Source: Candidatus Binatia bacterium (GTDB lineage: Bacteria; Desulfobacterota; Binatia; HRBIN30). Taken from it: a DNA stretch of 64,000 bases. Below the pieces are notes generated by a model. That model was not told the DNA's origin. It saw nothing but the letters and a program-made list of their open reading frames with translations, and did not search any database. The DNA lies in assembly GCA_038245295.1 (NCBI GenBank), contig JBBRSP010000033.1, positions 1-64,000 on the forward strand, read 5' to 3'. Below, piece after piece: positions 29,287-39,424 of this stretch. Both the position numbers and the translations under genes were made by a program. The stretch's first letter is position 1. Every line of letters begins with the position of its first letter.

Positions 29287-29610
29287 GAGACTGTCGATTT
29301 TCTCGGATTCATCATTTGAAACCGCGCAAACACCTCCGTCATACCGGCGAAAGCCGGTATCTCCCAAGCACTTTTGGCCTTCCAGTCGAGGAGATCCCGG
29401 CTTTCGAGTCTGTCGTAAAACTAAAGTGGAGCAACGTCATCCCGGTGAACACCGGGATCTCCCCCTGCTGGACGCCTCGAAAGCTGGCGAGATACCGGCT
29501 TTCGCCGGTATGACGGATAGGTGTGCTCGGTTTCAAATATGGCTTCCGAGTAAATCGACACACTCTTTCGCCGGGATGACGTTCCTTCATATCAGTTTAT
29601 CGACAGTCTC
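29287..29610. mobile_element. MITE family B copy interrupted by a second family B copy
   Basis: Ends GAGACTGTCGAT / ATCGACAGTCTC; colinear with the uninterrupted copy at 34439-34597 once 29406-29569 is removed. Confidence 0.85.
29406..29565. mobile_element. MITE family B, inverted inner copy (160 bp)
   Basis: Ends GAGTCTGTCG / CGACACACTC; 4-bp TSD TTTC (29402-29405, 29566-29569). Confidence 0.85.
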
Positions 29611-29668: not shown

Positions 29669-31141
29669 TTAGAACGCCAACTGCACCCGCGTCACGATCG
29701 CGTCCTCCGCCTTGCGATTTCCCTTCGAGCCGCCGCCGGTGAAGGTGTTGTTCGAGTAGTTCAGGACGAACTTGATGTTCTTGTTGAGATACCAGTTCGC
29801 GCCGACAACGTACTCCGTGTTGCGTCGCGCTGATCGCTTTGGATCGGCGAATCCCTTGTCGAACGCTTCGCGATCGATCTCGAGTTGCCCGAAGCGGGCG
29901 ACCGCTTCCACCGCACCCCAGTTGCCTTCGAACGGATCGAACGGCAACGTGGGGTTCACGCCTTTGAAGGAGGCCAGCTCGCCGGTGAGCACATACGACG
30001 CCGCGACCTGCCATGCCTGGTTGTTGACCGTTGCTTCGTTGTTGCCAATCCGCACGACCTGATCGGAGTATGTTAACTCACCGAGCAACCCGAACGATTG
30101 GAAGTAGTAGTAAGCTTGCGGCGCCAGACGCGAGTGCTCGCCCACCGCGATGGCGGTGGTGTTGAGATCGGCGCCGGTCTTGTAGCTGAAGAAGGTTGCC
30201 TGACCCGTCGTGCGGTAGCCCGGCAGATCCGGTGAGGCCAGGTTGCCGCGCGCGCGCCCGTAGGTTCCGGCGATGCCCAGACCGAGCCCGCGCAACGGCT
30301 CGACTTCCAGGTTCTTGAACGGCAGCGCAAACACACGGCCGGCGAAGTCCTTCGCATCGTTGACGTCGGTGGCGGAGTTGCCGAGATCGGGCACGCCGTT
30401 GAAGATGCCCAACTGGTAACTCAACGCACCCTCGAACAGCTCGCCGCCGAGTTGCACGCCATTGTCACGTGTTGGGACGAGGTTGGTCGGCAGTCCGCGC
30501 TCGATGAACATGGTGCTGGTTGCCGACTGCAAACGCTCGAGGCCGACGGGTGGCTTGAACTTACCAACGCGCAGCTTGAGCCACGGTACGAAGTTCGTTT
30601 CGACGTAGGCATCAAAGAGGACGAAGTTGGCGCCGGCGAAGTCGGGCATGATGCGGAAGTCGAAGTACTTGCAGACCGTACCCTGCAAATCGAGACGCGC
30701 CCGACGGAAGGTGAACTGGGAGACGTTCTTGTCTTCCGAGTCCTCGATGAAGAAACGTGCATCGGCCTGTATGTACGCTCCAAACTTGAGCTTGTATCTG
30801 CCATCCGCCGAGTTGAGCGAGAACCCATCATTGATCCAACCCGCGAGAGGCTTCTGGTTCTCCAACGTTACTTCGACCTGCCTCTGGTCTTTGTTTAAGC
30901 GCCCAACCGTGTCTTCGAGCTCCTTGATGCGCTTCTGACTCTGCTCGAGCTCTTGCATGCGCCGCTCGACGTCGGCGCTCTTCGCCGGCGCCGCGGCCGG
31001 AGCGGCGGTTGTTTCTGCCGCCTCGGGGGCCGGCCGCTTCGTCTTCTTGGTCGCCGCGGCGTGGGCGGCGACAACACTGGATTGAAAGACCGTGAGGGCG
31101 GCGAGGACCAACCCAACGCGACGCATCCGGTGGGTGCGCAT
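29669..31141 (-). CDS. OprO/OprP-family anion-selective porin (probably sulfate-related)
   Basis: FRRARLDLQG, GKFKPPVGLERLQS, FIERGLPTNL, GANWYLN, terminal QLAF; last gene of sulfate operon. Confidence 0.88.
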   Translation of the reverse strand: MRTHRMRRVGLVLAALTVFQSSVVAAHAAATKKTKRPAPEAAETTAAPAAAPAKSADVERRMQELEQSQKRIKELEDTVGRLNKDQRQVEVTLENQKPLAGWINDGFSLNSADGRYKLKFGAYIQADARFFIEDSEDKNVSQFTFRRARLDLQGTVCKYFDFRIMPDFAGANFVLFDAYVETNFVPWLKLRVGKFKPPVGLERLQSATSTMFIERGLPTNLVPTRDNGVQLGGELFEGALSYQLGIFNGVPDLGNSATDVNDAKDFAGRVFALPFKNLEVEPLRGLGLGIAGTYGRARGNLASPDLPGYRTTGQATFFSYKTGADLNTTAIAVGEHSRLAPQAYYYFQSFGLLGELTYSDQVVRIGNNEATVNNQAWQVAASYVLTGELASFKGVNPTLPFDPFEGNWGAVEAVARFGQLEIDREAFDKGFADPKRSARRNTEYVVGANWYLNKNIKFVLNYSNNTFTGGGSKGNRKAEDAIVTRVQLAF

Positions 31142-31447: not shown

Positions 31448-33490
31448 TCAGATTTGGTAGTCTTGGACAAAGACGCGCACGCGTCGCGGGAATACGAAGA
31501 CGAGGTCGCCGGTCTTGAGCTGTAACTCGCGGAAACGTTCCTCCGTGAGCTCGACATTGATCGGCAGGCCGAACTCTTTGGCGATCAGCTCGACTTTCAC
31601 CGCCGAGCTGGCGGCGTTGACCCGCAGCACCTCGGCCTCGAGACTCGTCGCATCACGTGGCTCGCGGTCGATGTCGAGCTCGTGCGGCCGCACGTAGGCT
31701 TTCACCGGCCGTGAATCGTCGTGCTGATACTCCGGCATCGCCACTTCAAGGCCGGAGAGCACAGCGCGGCCGCCCTGAACACGACCGTGGAAGACGTTGA
31801 CGTTACCCAGGAAGTCCATGACAAACGCATTGGCCGGATGCTGGAAGACTTCCTGCGGCGTCCCCGCCTGCTCGATGCGGCCGCGATTCATCACCACGAC
31901 GCGATCGGAGACTTCGAAGGCTTCCTCCTGGTCATGGGTGACGAAGACGCTGGTGACGTGGATCTCATCGTGCAGTCGGCGCAACCACTGGCGCAGCTCC
32001 TTACGTACCTTGGCGTCGAGGGCGCCGAACGGTTCGTCGAGCAGCAGCACCTTGGGTTCGGCGGCGAGGGCGCGGGCCAGAGCGACACGCTGGCGTTGGC
32101 CGCCGGAGAGCTGCGTCGGCGCTTGTTTGCCGAGGCTGTCGAGTTGGACGAGCCGTAACAGCTCGTGCACGCGCTCCTGAATCGCCGCTTCCTTCCACTT
32201 CCGCACGCGCAGGCCGAAGGCGACGTTCTCGAAGACGGTCATGTGGCGGAACAGGGCGTAGTGTTGGAACACGAAGCCGACGTTGCGCTCGCGCACCGAA
32301 CGATGCGTTGCGTCTTCGTCCTCGTAGTGGATTGCGCCCTGGTCCGGTGTATCGAGGCCGGCGATGATCCGCAGCAGCGTCGTCTTGCCGGAGCCGGACG
32401 GGCCGAGGAGAGCCAGCAGCGAGCCGTGCGGTACATCGAGGCTGACGTTGTCGAGGGCGACGAAATTGCCGAAGCGTTTGGTGACGCCTTGAACCGAGAT
32501 TCCCACGGGTGCTTGCTCCTGCTCTTGCGGCAATTGTGGTGCCGCTCCCGGACCGACCGACTCAACGAAACGTGGCGCAGCGGTTGTGTCGAGCTGTGAC
32601 TCATCGGGCGCCGCCTCGCGCTTGCGGTTGGCGAGATCGCTGCGCGTCTTCCATTCGAGCCCCACTTTGATGGCCAGGGTAACCAGCGCCAGCGAGCACA
32701 GCAGGGACGCGAGCGCGAACGAGCCGGGGTTGTTGTACTCCTGGAAAAGCTTCTCGACGCGCAACGGCATAGTGTCGGTTTGGCCGGCGATATGCCCGGA
32801 GACTACGTAGACGGCGCCAAACTCACCCATAGCGCGGGCGTTGCAGAGGATGATGCCGTAGAGCAGGCCCCACTTGATGTTCGGCAGTGTAATGCGACGA
32901 AACATGTAGAGGGCACTGGCGCCGAGACTGACGGCGGCGGTCTCTTCCTCCGAGCCGATGGCTTCCATGACCGGGATGAGCTCGCGCGCCACGAACGGAA
33001 AAGTCACGAAGGCGGTGGCCAGGATCAGGCCTGGCGTGGCGAAGATGATCTTGATGTCGTGCTCGCGTAGCCACGGGCCAAAGTATCCCTGCAAGCCGAA
33101 GATCAGCACGAACATGAGGCCGGCGACCACCGGCGAAACGGCGAACGGCAAGTCGACCATCGCCGTCAGCAACGTGCGTCCGGGAAACTTGAAACGCGCA
33201 ATCAGCCAGGCTGCCGCGATGCCGAAGACCAGATTGGCGAGGACGGCGCCCGGGACGACGCGCAGAGTCAGCAGGATGGCGCTCAGCGTGTCGGCATCGT
33301 TGACCAGATTGTTCCAGTAGGTGGCCGGACCCTTGGCGAACGCTTCGTAGAAGACATTGACCACGGGAATCAGGATCAAGATGCCGGTGACGACGATGGC
33401 GGCGCCAATCAGGACCAAGCGAACGGCGGGCGAATCTTCTTGGGCGCGCCGGCGTGGTAGACCGGTGGTGGCCGCGAGCTCAGTGGCCAT
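31448..33490 (-). CDS. cysW-cysA: Sulfate ABC transporter CysW permease fused in frame to CysA ATPase
   Basis: [25 protein letters not shown] (CysW); [33 protein letters not shown]-like end (CysA); no stop between. Confidence 0.9.
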
Positions 33491-34304
33491 TGTTCTTACT
33501 CCAATGTTCGAGACGATTGATCACGACGAGTAGAGTCAGCGACATGAGCATCAGCACGACGGCGATCGCGGCGGCCTCGCGATACTTAAACTCTTCGAGC
33601 GCTGCGACGATCAGCACGGGAGCAATTTCCGTCTTGAACGGCATGTTGCCCGAGACGAAGACCACCGAGCCGTACTCCCCGAGGCCGCGCGCGAAGGCGA
33701 GGGCGAAGCCGGTGACGATGGCCGGCAGGAGCGCCGGAATGATGACGCGGCGGAACGTCTGCCAGCGTGTCGCACCCAGGCAAGCGGCGGCTTCTTCAAC
33801 TTCGGCTTCGAAGTCTTCCAACACCGGCTGCACGGTGCGCACGACGAAGGGCAGACCGATGAACACCAGGACCAGCACGATGGCCAAACGCGAGTAGGAT
33901 CCCTGGATTCCCAGAGGCACCAGGAACTGTCCGAGCCAGCCTGTTTTGACATAGAGGCTCGAGTACACCAGTCCGGCGACCGCCGTCGGCAGCGCAAACG
34001 GCAGGTCGATGATCGCATCGAAGAACCGTTTGAAAGGAAACTGGTAACGCACCAACACCCAGGCGACGAGCAGGCCGAGGCCGACATTGACCGCGGCGGC
34101 GATGAACGAGGTCGTGAACGTCAGCGCGTAGGCGGCCCGCGCGCGTGGAGTCCACACAGCGCCGACGAACTGCTCGAGGCTTAGCGTGCCGGCCTTGGCG
34201 AACAGGGCGAGCAACGGCAAGAGGACGAGCAGTGTCAGGTAGAAGAGGGTGTACCCGAGACTCAGTCGGAATCCGGGAAGCACTCGTCGGTTCACATCGA
34301 TCAT
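33480..34304 (-). CDS. cysT: Sulfate ABC transporter permease CysT
   Basis: [38 protein letters not shown]. Confidence 0.95.
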
Positions 34305-34394
34305 GTTTGCAGCTCCTCGCATCTCGGCGCGCGGCTCCTGAGCGCTCCCTCTCCCAGCTCAAGGGATTCACGGCATCTGTGAGAGGGTTGGGGT

Positions 34395-34656
34395 CAATGT
34401 CGTTAAGTTCGCGAGAGAAGTGCGTCGTCCCGGCCTCCAAGTCTGTCGACTTTCTCTGATTCATCGTTTGAAACAGCGCAAACATCCCCGTCATACCGGC
34501 GAAAGCCGGTATCTCCCCAGCATTCTCGGCCTTCCACTCGAGGAGATTCCGGCTTTCGCCGGGATGACGTTGCGTCATTTCAGTTATCGACAGTCTCCTC
34601 CGCCGGTATGACGAGGCTCCGCATTGGCCCGCACCCTCGCTAACTTAACGACATTT
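34395..34656. mobile_element. Miniature element (family D) with IS4-like ends, set inside CCCTCTCCC-type palindromes and hosting a family B MITE
   Basis: IR CAATGTCGTTAAGTT (34395-34409) / AACTTAACGACATTT (34642-34656). Confidence 0.65.
34439..34597. mobile_element. MITE family B, intact copy (159 bp)
   Basis: Ends AAGTCTGTCGA / TCGACAGTCTC; 4-bp TSD CTCC (34435-34438, 34598-34601); internal inverted pair of CGTCAT-CCGGC-GAAA-GCCGG palindromes. Confidence 0.85.
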
Positions 34657-34767: not shown

Positions 34768-35811
34768 CTACCGACCAGGCTGGTAGATCTTGTCGAAGAT
34801 CTTTCCTTCGACGAAGAACTTGTTGTAGGCGTCGGTCCAATCGGTGGCGATCGTCGTCACCGGGAACAGCTTCAAATCGGGGAAGGACTGGGCGTGGCGC
34901 TGTTTCACCGCGGCATTGATCGGCCGATAGAAACGTTGCGCGATGATCTCCTGGCCGGCGTCGGTGTAGAGAAAGTTCAGATATGCCTCCGCCACTTCAC
35001 GCGTACCCTTGCGGCGGACATTCGAATCGATGACGGCGAGCGGTGGTTCGGCGAGGATGCTGATCGGTGGGTAGACGATTTCGAGATCGCCACCGGACTC
35101 GTTCACTTCAGGGTAGGCCTCATTTTCCCAGGTCAGGTGCACGTCGCCGATCTTCTTCTGCGCGAAGGTGATGGTTGAGCCGCGCGCGCCCGAGTCGAGA
35201 ACCGGCGTTTGCTTGTACAGGGCGGTGATGAAGTCGGTGGCCTGTTGTTCGCTGCCTCCGCGCTGTGTCACCGAGCCCCAGGCGGCCAGCAAGCTGAGCT
35301 TGCCGTTGCCGGAGGTTTTCGGATTCGGAGTGACGATCTCGATTCCCGGCTTGATCAGATCGGGCCAGTCCTTGACGCCCTTGGGATTGCCCTTGCGGAC
35401 GACGAACACGATGGTGCTGGTGTAGGCGACCGAGTTGTTCGGCAGGCGCTGTTCCCAGCCATTGGCGAGCAGGCCGGCTTTTTGAATGGCTTCGGTGTCG
35501 GGCCACAGGGCCAGCGTGGCGACATCCGCATCCAGGCCGTCGACGATGGCGCGCGCCTGGGCGCCGGAGCCACCATGCGACTGCTTGATGGTGACGGTTA
35601 CGCCCTTGGTTTTGGCGTAGTCGGCGATGAACGCCTGGTTGAGCTCGCGCCACAGCTCGCGGGTTGGGTCGTAGGAAACATTGAGCAGCTCGACCGAATC
35701 GGCGGCTGGGCTGCTGTGTGGTGATGCCAACGCGACGACAAGGCCACTGGCGGCGGCAAGGGCGAACCGGGCGGCACTCTTCCAGAACGGGCGGTTGGTA
35801 GTCATGTCCAT
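34768..35811 (-). CDS. sbp: Sulfate ABC transporter substrate-binding protein
   Basis: LLNVSYDPTREL, QSHGGSGAQAR, PNPKTSG, WENEA; AAGGAG RBS before ATG 35811. Confidence 0.96.
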   Translation of the reverse strand: MDMTTNRPFWKSAARFALAAASGLVVALASPHSSPAADSVELLNVSYDPTRELWRELNQAFIADYAKTKGVTVTIKQSHGGSGAQARAIVDGLDADVATLALWPDTEAIQKAGLLANGWEQRLPNNSVAYTSTIVFVVRKGNPKGVKDWPDLIKPGIEIVTPNPKTSGNGKLSLLAAWGSVTQRGGSEQQATDFITALYKQTPVLDSGARGSTITFAQKKIGDVHLTWENEAYPEVNESGGDLEIVYPPISILAEPPLAVIDSNVRRKGTREVAEAYLNFLYTDAGQEIIAQRFYRPINAAVKQRHAQSFPDLKLFPVTTIATDWTDAYNKFFVEGKIFDKIYQPGR

Positions 35812-35888
35812 GCTCTCCTTCAAATCCGTCTTCGGTTTTCGGATAAAACGCGGCGCGTCGGCGTTCGGCAGATGCCGGCGCGACAATG

Positions 35889-35923
35889 AAAAAGGCCCGG
35901 GAGGATGAACCTCTCGGGCCTTT
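35889..35923 (-). terminator. Intrinsic terminator (attenuator) in the sbp leader
   Basis: AAAGGCCCGAGAGG-TTCAT-CCTCCCGGGCC-TTTTT on the minus strand. Confidence 0.85.
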
Positions 35924-35947
35924 GGATTCGCAGCGATGTGTTCGGAG

Positions 35948-36052
35948 TTAACGAGCAGCGGAACAGAACACGGCGCGACCGTCGGCGCGAGAGGCCTCCC
36001 AGGCCTTCGTACAACAACACATACAACCGACAGTTTGGCGCGGAGCGTTCAT
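35948..36052 (-). CDS. Cys-rich leader peptide (34 aa) of the sulfate operon
   Basis: Manual translation MNAPRQTVGCMCCCTKAWEASRADGRAVFCSAAR*; TGT-ATG-TGT-TGT-TGT at 36025..36011; stop 25 nt before the terminator. Confidence 0.8.
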   Translation of the reverse strand: MNAPRQTVGCMCCCTKAWEASRADGRAVFCSAAR

Positions 36053-36061
36053 TGGCGGCCG

Positions 36062-36090
36062 CATCTACGCGAAGCAAGGCAGGTGGTCAA
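36062..36090 (-). promoter_or_regulatory. sigma70-like promoter of the leader/sulfate operon
   Basis: TTGACC-N17-TAGATG, ending 9 nt before the leader ATG. Confidence 0.6.
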
Positions 36091-36114
36091 GGGTGGACCG
36101 GGAATAAATCTGGG

Positions 36115-36265
36115 ATGCCCTTCGAGACGCCGCCAAACATCCTTCGAGACGGCAACGAAAGAAGGTGCCTCCTCCGGAGGCGGCTCCTCAGGGCGAGCGG
36201 TCTTGGGAAGTTTCCGTTCGGGCTGAGGAGGCGCCATCGTTTCAGGCGCCGTCTCGAAGCCCACC
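36115..36265. repeat. CCTTCGAGACG...CTCCTCAG / CTGAGGAG...GTCTCGAAG palindromic repeat cluster; relatives at ~23130-23250, 29182-29220, 49386-49476
   Basis: Inverted arms visible; CCGTTCGGGCTGAGGAGGC present at both ~23186 and ~36214. Confidence 0.7.
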
Positions 36266-36269
36266 GTAG

Positions 36270-37577
36270 CTAGGGCGCCGCGCCTCCGGACGATAGGTCC
36301 AGCTCGGCGCTGATTTCTTCCAGTGTCTTGCCGCCGGTTTCCGGGGCGTATCGCAGTACGACGAGTCCGCCGACGACCGGTCCGACGGCCATGATCGCGA
36401 CGGCGTATGGAATGCCGATGCGATCGGCGAGCCAGCCAATGGCCAGCGGGCTGACGATTTCGGTGAAGCGGCCGAAGAGGTTGGTGGTCCAGCTGTATCC
36501 GGTGGCGCGAATCTCGGTTGGGAAGAGCTCGGTGGCAAAGGTGCTGGTGGCCGAGTTGGCACCCAGGAAGCCGATGACGGCGGCGGCCATCAAGGCGGTC
36601 TGTACGCCCAGGCTCTTGGATGGAATCCAGAACAAGGCAAAGACGGCCACTGCCGTGAACAAGTAGTAGTAGCCGCAGCTGAGGCGGCGACCGAAGCGAT
36701 TCATGCAGTAGCCGGACAGTGGGGCGCCAATCACGAAGGCGAGAAAGTAGGCGCCGGCGACGACGAGCGTATAGTCTTTTGGCCCGAAACCAAGGTTGCG
36801 CGACGCGTGGATCGTCCAAAAGGTGACCGCCGGTGCGGCGACGAGGTGGTTACAGTTCCAGATCAACGTGACGAGCAGGGAGCGGTTGCGGTAGCGCTTT
36901 CGAAACGGCACGAAGATGTTGCTCAGTTGCTCGCCGAGCGAGTTGTATGTCTTGCCGGTGTCCTGCAGATGCTCGAAGCGACGCGTCTCGCGCATGCCGA
37001 GGCGCACGAATAACACCAGGGCCACCGGGATGAGCCCGAGCAGATACATTGTCTGCCAGTCGTAGGCGGAGAGGATCCACCGCGCCGTGAGGAATTCGAT
37101 GATTGTGCCGAGAGCCGCCACGCCAGCCAGGAGCGAGATGCCGAAACTGCGCCAGCGAGTCGGGTACTCTTCGCCGATGATGATGAGGGCCAGAGCAAAC
37201 TCAGCCGCTAGGAAGATGCGAGCGCAGAACTGCCACAGCGTGAAGGCTTCGATGCTTTGCGCATATGCCGTGAGGCCGGTGAACGCGGCATAGCCGAGGA
37301 TCGTCAGCGAGATGATCGGCCGCCGGCCGAAGCGGTCGGCGAGCATCAGGATGAAAAACGACACGACGGCGCCGATGCGGATGATCAGGTTGACCAAGCC
37401 CCACTGGGTGTTGTTGAGGCTGTAGGTTTTCTGAATGATCGGGGCGACGGTCGACAGAATGGCGATGTTGAAGGCATCGAACATGGTGGCCGAGACCAAC
37501 ATGCCCATCAACGCCCAGAGGTAGGGCGTCATCGTGTCGACTTCGGTGCTCGCTGCCTGCGTCGTGCCGGTACTCAT
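36270..37577 (-). CDS. MFS transporter
   Basis: LADRFGRR, EEYPTRWR, TELFPTEIRATG, PETGGKTLEEI; many hydrophobic helices. Confidence 0.93.
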   Translation of the reverse strand: MSTGTTQAASTEVDTMTPYLWALMGMLVSATMFDAFNIAILSTVAPIIQKTYSLNNTQWGLVNLIIRIGAVVSFFILMLADRFGRRPIISLTILGYAAFTGLTAYAQSIEAFTLWQFCARIFLAAEFALALIIIGEEYPTRWRSFGISLLAGVAALGTIIEFLTARWILSAYDWQTMYLLGLIPVALVLFVRLGMRETRRFEHLQDTGKTYNSLGEQLSNIFVPFRKRYRNRSLLVTLIWNCNHLVAAPAVTFWTIHASRNLGFGPKDYTLVVAGAYFLAFVIGAPLSGYCMNRFGRRLSCGYYYLFTAVAVFALFWIPSKSLGVQTALMAAAVIGFLGANSATSTFATELFPTEIRATGYSWTTNLFGRFTEIVSPLAIGWLADRIGIPYAVAIMAVGPVVGGLVVLRYAPETGGKTLEEISAELDLSSGGAAP

Positions 37578-38554: not shown

Positions 38555-39424
38555 CTATTTGCCGAAGGCGATTCGGAAGGCAGCTTCTATCCAGTCGGCA
38601 GCGGCGCGGATCGGGGCGGCCTTCTTGAGATCGCGGTGCATGACGATCCATGGGGTGCGTGGCGGGATCGGACTCGGGGGCGGGACGGCAATGAGCACCG
38701 ACTCGTGCTTGGCGAAAGCCTCGGGGAGCAGCGCGATGCCGGCGCCGGCAACAGCGGTCCGCAGAAGGGCGCGGGTGCTGCCGGTGCGCAAGCGTGCGGC
38801 AAGGCCAGCTTCTTCCATCCATCGGAGCTCCGGGATGCGGCCGTAACTTTCGTCGTCGAGTAACAAGCGCTCGTCGCGGACGGCGAGTGCGGCGGGATCA
38901 CGGCCCGCGAGATAGGAGCGGCTGGCGTAGAGGCCGAGACGGATGAGCGGCAGTCGACGGGCAACAAGACTGTCGCCCACCGGACGCACCATGCGTACGG
39001 CGAGATCCGCTTCGCGGGCAGCGAGGCTGACGATGTCGGCGCGTGTGCTCAATTCAACCCGCAGCTTCGGGGCGCGCTGCCACAGCAGGGGTAGTGCCGG
39101 GGCCAGAATATCGGCGACGACCATTTCCGTTGCTGTGATTCGCACTGGCTCGGTCGCTTCCCCCGAGCGCAAAGCCGCGGCGGCACGTTCGATCTTGGCG
39201 ACCTCCATACCAACACCTGCCGCCAGCGCGACGATCTGCTGTCCATGTGTCGTCAGGCGCACCCCGTCGCGACGCCGATCGGTGAGACGCAATTCGAGAT
39301 CGTGCTCCAGCGCGTCCAACCGCCGTGCGACCGTCGAGATCGACACGCCCAAGTCCTGCGCCGCGCCACTCAGGGAACCCGCTGCGGCGACGGTGATCAG
39401 ATATGACAGATCGGTCCACTGCAT
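38555..39424 (-). CDS. LysR-family transcriptional regulator
   Basis: WTDLSYL..AGSLSGAA..LGVSISTVARRL HTH; READLAVR. Confidence 0.93.
   Translation of the reverse strand: MQWTDLSYLITVAAAGSLSGAAQDLGVSISTVARRLDALEHDLELRLTDRRRDGVRLTTHGQQIVALAAGVGMEVAKIERAAAALRSGEATEPVRITATEMVVADILAPALPLLWQRAPKLRVELSTRADIVSLAAREADLAVRMVRPVGDSLVARRLPLIRLGLYASRSYLAGRDPAALAVRDERLLLDDESYGRIPELRWMEEAGLAARLRTGSTRALLRTAVAGAGIALLPEAFAKHESVLIAVPPPSPIPPRTPWIVMHRDLKKAAPIRAAADWIEAAFRIAFGK

Follow-up and report, generated by a model that had tools for sequence, protein, structure and literature searches.

The sulfate-uptake gene sbp of a Candidatus Binatia bacterium is preceded by a short leader that very probably acts as a classical ribosome-mediated transcription attenuator, in which translation of a run of cysteine (Cys) codons on a leaderless or nearly leaderless mRNA would sense Cys-tRNA. 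The leader lies on the minus strand of the window, by which we mean the whole 64,000-nucleotide (nt) stretch of contig JBBRSP010000033.1 that was analysed. Judged from its sequence, it combines the features expected of an attenuator: an open reading frame (ORF) with control codons, a terminator before the first gene, and an antiterminator that is exclusive with this terminator. Its parts are as follows.

36090-36085, minus strand: -35-like box TTGACC, read from the sequence and followed by a 17-nt spacer
36067-36062, minus strand: -10-like element TAGATG, 9 nt ahead of the ATG at 36052
36052-35948, minus strand: 34-codon leader ORF, predicted to be leaderless or nearly so (+1 near 36053), with an ATG at 36052 and no Shine-Dalgarno (SD) sequence
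36011..36025, minus strand: predicted control codons C-M-C-C-C, all five Cys codons being TGT
36005-35995, minus strand: segment 1, whose partner is segment 2 or segment 4
35994-35984, minus strand: segment 2, CCTCTCGCGCC, the antiterminator arm, whose partner is the terminator 5' arm
35924..35980, minus strand: predicted inner helices that would extend the 2:3 antiterminator across the stop codon (folding prediction only)
35920-35910, minus strand: segment 3, the terminator 5' arm
35885..35904, minus strand: segment 4 (35904-35894) and the U-tract TTTTTCATT, together a predicted intrinsic terminator

The ORF encodes MNAPRQTVGCMCCCTKAWEASRADGRAVFCSAAR, with its stop codon at 35950-35948, and this exact peptide is absent among 15 billion predicted proteins. 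Segment 2 begins 16 nt past the final Cys codon and can pair with the terminator 5' arm over 11 positions, of which 10 match; as many Watson-Crick matches to this arm are found in 5 of 5000 random 90-nt windows, and the folding of the whole leader has a z score of -3.5. The feature is real and far from chance. The terminator hairpin starts 27 nt after the ORF stop and is made of 11 positions with one A.C mismatch (10/11 pairs). The ATG of sbp, at 35811, is 82 nt beyond the U-tract, and its SD, about 75 nt past the terminator, is outside all four segments. The initial annotation had recognized the promoter, the ORF coordinates, the five TGT codons, the terminator followed by sbp and the complementarity of segment 2; all these statements hold, except that the A.C mismatch had gone unmentioned. 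A generic consensus scanner applied to positions 35000-37500 listed neither the leader promoter nor the terminator, so that both calls rest on conservation. The Rfam 15 covariance models gave no match across the leader at E<=5, and the sole matches obtained were weak, of miRNA type, and on palindromic repeats.

Conservation of the leader and of its alternative pairings

Sbp homologues are present in 35 of 61 related genomes. Among the best 30 of the 37 places, which were analysed, 26 have a leader with a Cys-run ORF and a terminator upstream of sbp, as was to be expected of orthologous loci if the attenuator first proposed here is genuine. The loci without a leader are L014, L016, L019 (where the contig end cuts the locus) and L030. 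In all, 79 distinct candidate leaders were collected, of which 73 were selected for a TTG-box 36-41 nt before an in-frame start and a run of 2-5 Cys codons; the TTG-box is itself part of this selection rule. Of the six left over, one is the degenerate leader of L011 and one the second copy of a tandem; two lack a matched box and two are false candidates. The 73 leaders start with ATG (51) or GTG (22), and an SD-like word stands ahead of the start in three of them. At positions on which no selection was made, a -10 consensus YATAAN appears at a 17-nt spacer; 84% of the leaders have A at -11, and 7% have T at -7. Sigma-70 promoters have a standard spacing to the transcription start site. Since the box is found 36-41 nt upstream of the start codon, this spacing would place +1 zero to five nt before the start codon, and the mRNA is predicted to be leaderless or nearly so.

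The Cys runs of the 73 leaders contain 208 TGT and 47 TGC codons (n=255), whereas TGT accounts for about 32% of the Cys codons genome-wide (a rough figure, taken from long ORFs), which bears out the early remark that so strong a TGT bias is unusual. The final Cys codon is TGT in all 35 aligned leaders. Elsewhere TGT and TGC are swapped, and the runs are broken by whole codons (CMCCC, CTCC, CRC, CWCC). The ORF stops 16-23 codons past the run in 34 of the 35 leaders, and a U-rich tail is present in 70 of the 73. The residues other than Cys vary where RNA pairing permits (W, R or Q at one position).

Segment 1 resembles segment 3 and segment 2 resembles segment 4, so that four helices are possible: 1:2, 2:3, 3:4 and 1:4. 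In the 35 aligned leaders, these are paired in 93%, 94%, 97% and 95% of cells, respectively, and compensatory changes occur in all four, 6 of the 11 pairs of 3:4 having changed on both sides. A covariance model was built on the 35 leaders with helices 1:2 and 3:4 only, and 84 further leaders were aligned to this model; the second set is thus not fitted to 2:3 or 1:4. In these 84 leaders, 2:3 is paired in 91% of cells and 1:4 in 89%, and 5 of 10 pairs of 2:3 are double-changed in each set, which supports the antiterminator originally proposed. The A.C mismatch is informative about the competition between helices. It is kept in the terminator of 41 of the 84 leaders, while its A pairs in 2:3 in 74 of 82 and the partner column pairs in 1:4 in 76 of 83; the mismatch of the window shows the same pairing behaviour. 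This argues that both rival helices are selected separately from the terminator.

The small AGGCCT-GGG-AGGCCT hairpin that had been noted within the leader ORF is indeed present, but it is a weaker alternative, paired in 83% of cells; the conserved upstream hairpin is instead 1:2, GGCCUGGGA-GGCC-UCUCGCGCC. The wobble position of an Ala codon in segment 1 is a pyrimidine in 35 of 35 leaders, which fits 1:4 and the AGGCCT hairpin alike and is not decisive. Similarly, what we take to be the consensus pause-site sequence occurs 10-17 nt past hairpin 1:2 in 29 of 35 leaders; such sites are common in GC-rich DNA and this one was not counted as evidence.

The covariance model matches 43 of the 151 genomes of the class Ca. 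Binatia, which is described as an uncultured group in the accessible part of PMC8262859, with as many as four separate leader copies within one genome. Outside the training set, 41 new matches (E<=1e-6) precede sbp or cysT (25), cysK (3, together with cysE in one operon), an O-acetylhomoserine sulfhydrylase gene (1), contig ends (2) and other genes (10). A pattern scan of the genome collection, loose and not to be taken as a census, gave 12 real leaders among the 119 matches listed, the others being due to chance; leaders found in this way also precede a cysteine dioxygenase-like gene and a DUF2061 gene. A phylum-wide model search matched 4 of 151 genomes, three of which belong to the class; the fourth match was rejected as an ordinary terminator following a gene. 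In three other phyla (sets centred on a planctomycete, an acidobacterium and a myxococcus; 8, 15 and 8 of 101 genomes each), 37 sbp loci, in which sbp may be an inner gene, gave no model match above 12 bits nor, within 1.5 kb, any convincing Cys leader. The leader of L044, whose record is labelled outside Binatia, was not taken as spread across phyla: the Sbp of its genome is 78% identical to that of the window. In L193, cysK-cysE is preceded by two tandem leaders of the family at a distance of about 610 nt from each other, and L299 has two model matches.

The pattern used for a metagenome scan contained the box, a start codon, the Cys run and segments 1-2; spacing was free, and nothing was demanded of terminator, frame or gene. 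The scan gave 64 hits (52 distinct sequences, partly shared with the earlier loci). In 63 of the 64 hits the start codon and the Cys run share a frame, where chance would give about 1 in 3 per start, a terminator is present in 57 of the 60 hits of sufficient length, and a sulfur gene (sbp, cysT or cysK) is found downstream in 47 of the 64. The remaining hits are on contigs that are too short (9) or end after a small ORF (5), or are of other kinds (3).

The predicted cysteine switch and its alternatives

According to the attenuation model, RNA polymerase would start 0-5 nt before the AUG and the ribosome would load without an SD. When cysteine is short, the ribosome would stall on the UGU run and cover segment 1; segment 2 would then capture segment 3 before segment 4 emerges, allowing read-through to sbp. 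When cysteine is plentiful, the ribosome would pass segment 2 and travel about 20 codons on, opening the inner helices, until it reaches the stop, which lies 27 nt ahead of segment 3; after its passage 1:2 and 3:4 would form and transcription would end at the U-tract. Duplexes ending at a U-tract can terminate transcription, and termination in cysteine plenty would depend either on the refolding of 1:2 behind the ribosome or on 1:4 zipping up as the hairpin. Should 2:3 form while nothing covers segment 1, this segment would pair with segment 4, which would probably also terminate transcription and keep an untranslated leader off. The leader peptide itself is probably not the functional product.

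The effect of ribosome position was explored by folding a truncated transcript, cut just after segment 3, with a ribosome covering 10 nt 3' of the A-site (6 and 13 nt were also run). With the A-site on the last four positions of the run, 2:3 is dominant in 27-34 of the 35 leaders. None of the 35 has 2:3 dominant once the ribosome stands 4-7 codons past the run; without a ribosome, 13 do.

Several observations weigh against the attenuation model. In the truncated transcript, 2:3 forms at other ribosome positions as well: before the run in 24 of the 35 leaders, 1-2 codons beyond it in 32-33 and at the stop in 22, so that folding alone gives no clean Cys-only switch. When the full leader is folded at equilibrium, 3:4 prevails over 2:3 in most cases, even if the ribosome sits on the last Cys codon (mean 0.90 vs 0.07), which means that read-through would need kinetic trapping of 2:3; the unconstrained minimum-energy fold is made of 1:4 and 2:3, not of the terminator. 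The covariation score was reached by none of 500 shuffles for each of the three structures counted, with lower scores in slid controls, and these counts overstate the case because the leaders are kin and their segments mostly conserved; few helix pairs reach the top of a mutual-information ranking. Segment 2 begins 16 nt past the last Cys in 43 of the 73 leaders and at varying distances in the others. Ten of the 39 evaluable new matches precede genes without a clear sulfur link, namely porins, an ABC ATPase and small proteins without assignment. Finally, the leader of L011 is degenerate, having one Cys codon and an ORF that reads into the terminator. An XRE-cupin-like regulator gene, which we presume to be SutR-like, adjoins sbp upstream in L011, L014 and L016, where the leader is degenerate or absent; in these loci a protein regulator has possibly replaced RNA control.

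An alternative that we consider improbable keeps the ribosome as the sensor of cysteine and makes the regulated step Rho-dependent, translational or a matter of mRNA decay, in place of the hairpin and U-tract; these are modes of control demonstrated or suggested for poly-Cys short ORFs of mycobacteria. Rho is encoded in the genome, equilibrium folding shows no clean switch, and the one dissected mycobacterial poly-Cys case is translational (10.1101/834739, in the text accessible from it). Yet the terminator and its U-tract are kept in 57 of 60 independent metagenome hits, and 2:3 appears to be selected at the expense of 3:4. Moreover, the position of the sbp SD, outside the paired segments, makes translational control of the mycobacterial type unlikely for this leader.

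Even less probable is an antitermination switch that binds a protein or a metabolite (T-box- or riboswitch-like), in which the UGU repeats would count as a motif of the RNA, the ORF being incidental. The invariant TGT at the last Cys, the overall enrichment in TGT and the apparent RNA constraint on the downstream codons could all be read in this way. Against it stand the absence of an Rfam match over the leader at E<=5, the interchange of TGT and TGC, the interruption of runs by whole codons and the regular distance from the run to the stop; conservation of the frame (63/64) makes a pure RNA sensor unlikely. Equally poor are the chances of a functional Cys-rich peptide (metal-binding, or a modified precursor) with the hairpin as its terminator and sbp on a separate promoter: the motif CCC-TKAWEASRA does look conserved, but its residues overlie segments 1-2 and change non-synonymously where pairing permits, both ends of the peptide differ in length and sequence from leader to leader, the unit is mobile, standing before sbp, cysK or another sulfur gene, just about 80 nt separate the terminator from sbp, and the scanner, which missed the leader promoter too, shows no promoter in 35000-37500.

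Second ORFs, the sulfate operon and its genome

The 88 distinct sbp loci fall into three groups. In 42 of them sbp comes right after the terminator, which is also the arrangement in the window; 31 have a further Cys-tailed ORF (counted as such with at least one Cys in the last 16 residues), and 15 have neither by this rule. The second ORF, which is absent from the window's locus, is led by an SD and lies between the terminator and sbp. It ends with Ala-Ala-stop in 25 of the 31 cases, and CCCCCCAA and CC..CC..AA are among the tails. Rho typically loads at stretches rich in C and poor in G. The 60 nt after the second-ORF stops average 27 C vs 15 G; a surplus of more than 8 C over G is seen in 25 of the 31, many of which are close kin, compared with 8% of 2603 ordinary genes. 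Given this composition, the second ORF could possibly be a second, tna-like and Rho-dependent, cysteine sensor. Such ORFs were seen in L026, L165, L166, L169, L170, L178, L181, L182, L192, L197, L198, L203, L205, L291 and others; L014 and L016 carry the second type of ORF only. One subfamily has a RWLRxKRHLR motif and no Pfam match.

Downstream of the leader, the window contains the following genes, each with matches above the family cut-off.

34768..35811, minus strand: sbp, sulfate ABC transporter binding protein (NF008022 and TIGR00971)
33480..34322, minus strand: cysT permease, with a likely start at 34304 (TIGR02139)
31448..33490, minus strand: cysW-cysA, a single 680-aa ORF (TIGR02140 and TIGR00968)
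29669..31141, minus strand: porin O/P family gene (PF07396)

The porin O/P gene is likely the last gene of the sulfate operon, presumably co-transcribed with the others. In the window, cysW and cysA are joined by a linker of about 45 residues, which may reflect either a genuine fusion or the assembly; they are two separate ORFs in L037. Palindromic REP-like intergenic repeats are found inside and around the operon (34490-34568, about 29340-29590, and 36157-36257); the first two look alike by eye and also resemble a repeat upstream of cysK on contig C18.

As for regulators, the initial annotation had remarked that no CysB-type protein is encoded next to the operon, and indeed none exceeds the family cut-off anywhere in the genome (best score 103 vs 436 bits). 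A LysR-family gene at 38555-39424, 2.5 kb upstream of the leader, is below the cut-off for every named family, and CysB families are absent among its best 25 matches. The genome encodes one Rrf2-family regulator, as well as Rho, and has a single tRNA-Cys(GCA).

The same genome has a second copy of the leader (contig C4, 111693, minus strand; L031), VNAVRINCCCCCTKAWESSRA..., which precedes a 34-aa ORF and then a 300-aa mosaic ORF consisting of a TauD-like N-terminus (by eye), a segment without assignment and a cysK fragment. This looks like a decayed sulfur locus. No such leader was found within 500 nt upstream of the genome's intact cysK, cysE and O-acetylhomoserine sulfhydrylase genes. The ilv and aromatic pathways of this genome also have leaders built in this way, with a terminator and a box 39 nt ahead of the start; they precede an acetolactate-synthase-like and a DAHP-synthase-like gene, respectively (names read from the N-termini). 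Their equal spacing suggests that SD-less attenuator leaders are habitual in this organism. Leaderless-type leader peptides of these two pathways, with terminators and a promoter-to-start spacing equal to that of the Cys leader, lie at C27:77726 (plus strand), C32:249 (plus strand) and L212. A 'MASSCCCR' reading on contig C30 was dismissed as a leader, being inside a gene on the opposite strand.

A family of proteins of 90-130 residues, with a motif like LAVLxDA and no Pfam match, is repeatedly encoded downstream of Cys leaders (L044, L075, L187, L202, L331 and the C4 mosaic ORF) and is a candidate sulfur-starvation protein. More generally, the leaders flag small proteins without assignment and porins as candidate sulfur-starvation genes, and point to sulfur-uptake control in an uncultured, widespread class in which no CysB was found. 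One may go further and picture a sulfur-starvation response of Binatia that dispenses with CysB and relies on a mobile leaderless Cys attenuator, copied ahead of genes for sulfate transport and cysteine synthesis, with a two-tier sensor in many species, whose second tier would be the Cys-tailed second ORF, and 1:4 as a fail-safe terminator; we put this forward as a tentative and rather doubtful scheme. The attenuation model also suggests that, in a Gram-negative lineage, leaderless translation can be coupled to transcription tightly enough for termination control.

Comparison with known systems

The leader departs from the well-known attenuators of the trp, his, thr and ilv operons in that the control amino acid is cysteine, there is no SD, the ORF continues for about 20 codons past the run to a stop between segments 2 and 3, and segment 1 can pair with segment 4 over nearly its full length. 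It shares with these classical systems, as presented in the accessible part of 10.1101/834739, a leader ORF with a run of codons for the end product, the hairpins 1:2, 2:3 and 3:4, and a terminator with a U-tract before the operon.

A close parallel to the predicted leaderless organization is the mycobacterial 'Cys ribulon'. Canestrari et al. described a poly-Cys leaderless short ORF that gives translational attenuation by sequestration of the SD, termination being excluded in that case; Ms4533 was among the cysteine-responsive proteins, and the mechanisms at other loci were left undetermined (10.1101/834739, same portion). Ms4533 is the subI/sbp homologue of M. smegmatis, according to what is accessible of PMC12501120. 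Leaderless mRNA (a prediction for the present family), consecutive Cys codons, several loci per genome, a sulfate-binding-protein operon and cysK-cysE are common to the mycobacterial cases, as far as the accessible texts describe them, and to the present family, in which the first ORF of an operon related to cysteine likewise contains a cluster of at least two Cys codons. However, the mycobacterial Cys tract is C-terminal, and no conserved terminator is mentioned for cys leaders in those texts; Seliverstov et al. also list actinobacterial Cys leaders without terminators (PMC1262725, accessible part). The leader studied here has instead a mid-ORF run, which in 34 of 35 leaders is 16-23 codons away from the stop, and a conserved terminator and antiterminator, and no C-terminal Cys tract that pairs with the SD was found in it. 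It falls outside the mycobacterial translational class. Among 19 actinobacterial sbp loci, four have ORFs with C-terminal Cys, and their peptides are unlike the leader family. In these (L268, L270, L273, L276), the short ORF is about 260 nt upstream of sbp and matches the published mycobacterial type.

With regard to termination, a comparable case is uORFC-8-2, an upstream ORF with Cys codons and an intrinsic terminator predicted before cysS in 145 Rhodobacterales examples (PMC8632094, accessible part). Like our leader, it belongs to Gram-negative bacteria, has a predicted terminator and presumably allows read-through upon stalling. The description in that portion of the paper sets it apart: it concerns cysS only, with two tandem, mostly UGC, Cys codons inside the first stem. 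In contrast, the present leaders have 2-5 mostly UGU Cys codons and stand before genes for sulfate uptake and cysteine synthesis; the genes found downstream are sbp, cysK and others (cysS was not queried). The cysS gene of Deinococcus deserti has a leaderless Cys-containing leader peptide for which attenuation was proposed (PMC4007540); this peptide has 10 residues and two Cys, precedes cysS only, and is described with no hairpin set in the part of the article that is accessible. The accessible parts of PMC13236596, PMC2965389, PMC13096801, PMC4633059 and PMC8079986 contain no Cys attenuator of the terminator type. In the open-access literature, subscription papers being outside the scope, no description of this leader family was found, nor, in the texts accessible there, a demonstration of a cysteine attenuator of the terminator/antiterminator type, a class predicted for cysS (PMC8632094).

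The initial annotation had presented the arrangement as one with no known description for a sulfate-uptake operon in such a lineage; this overstated its novelty, since a poly-Cys short ORF had been linked to Ms4533 and a Cys-codon upstream ORF with a terminator had been predicted for Rhodobacterales cysS (10.1101/834739; PMC8632094; accessible parts of both). The family offers more than 100 natural variants of a complete predicted four-segment switch. What is new compared with the known systems is the RNA family itself, the lineage, the regulon-wide use where no CysB was found, and the tandem second ORF, each ingredient having its precedent.
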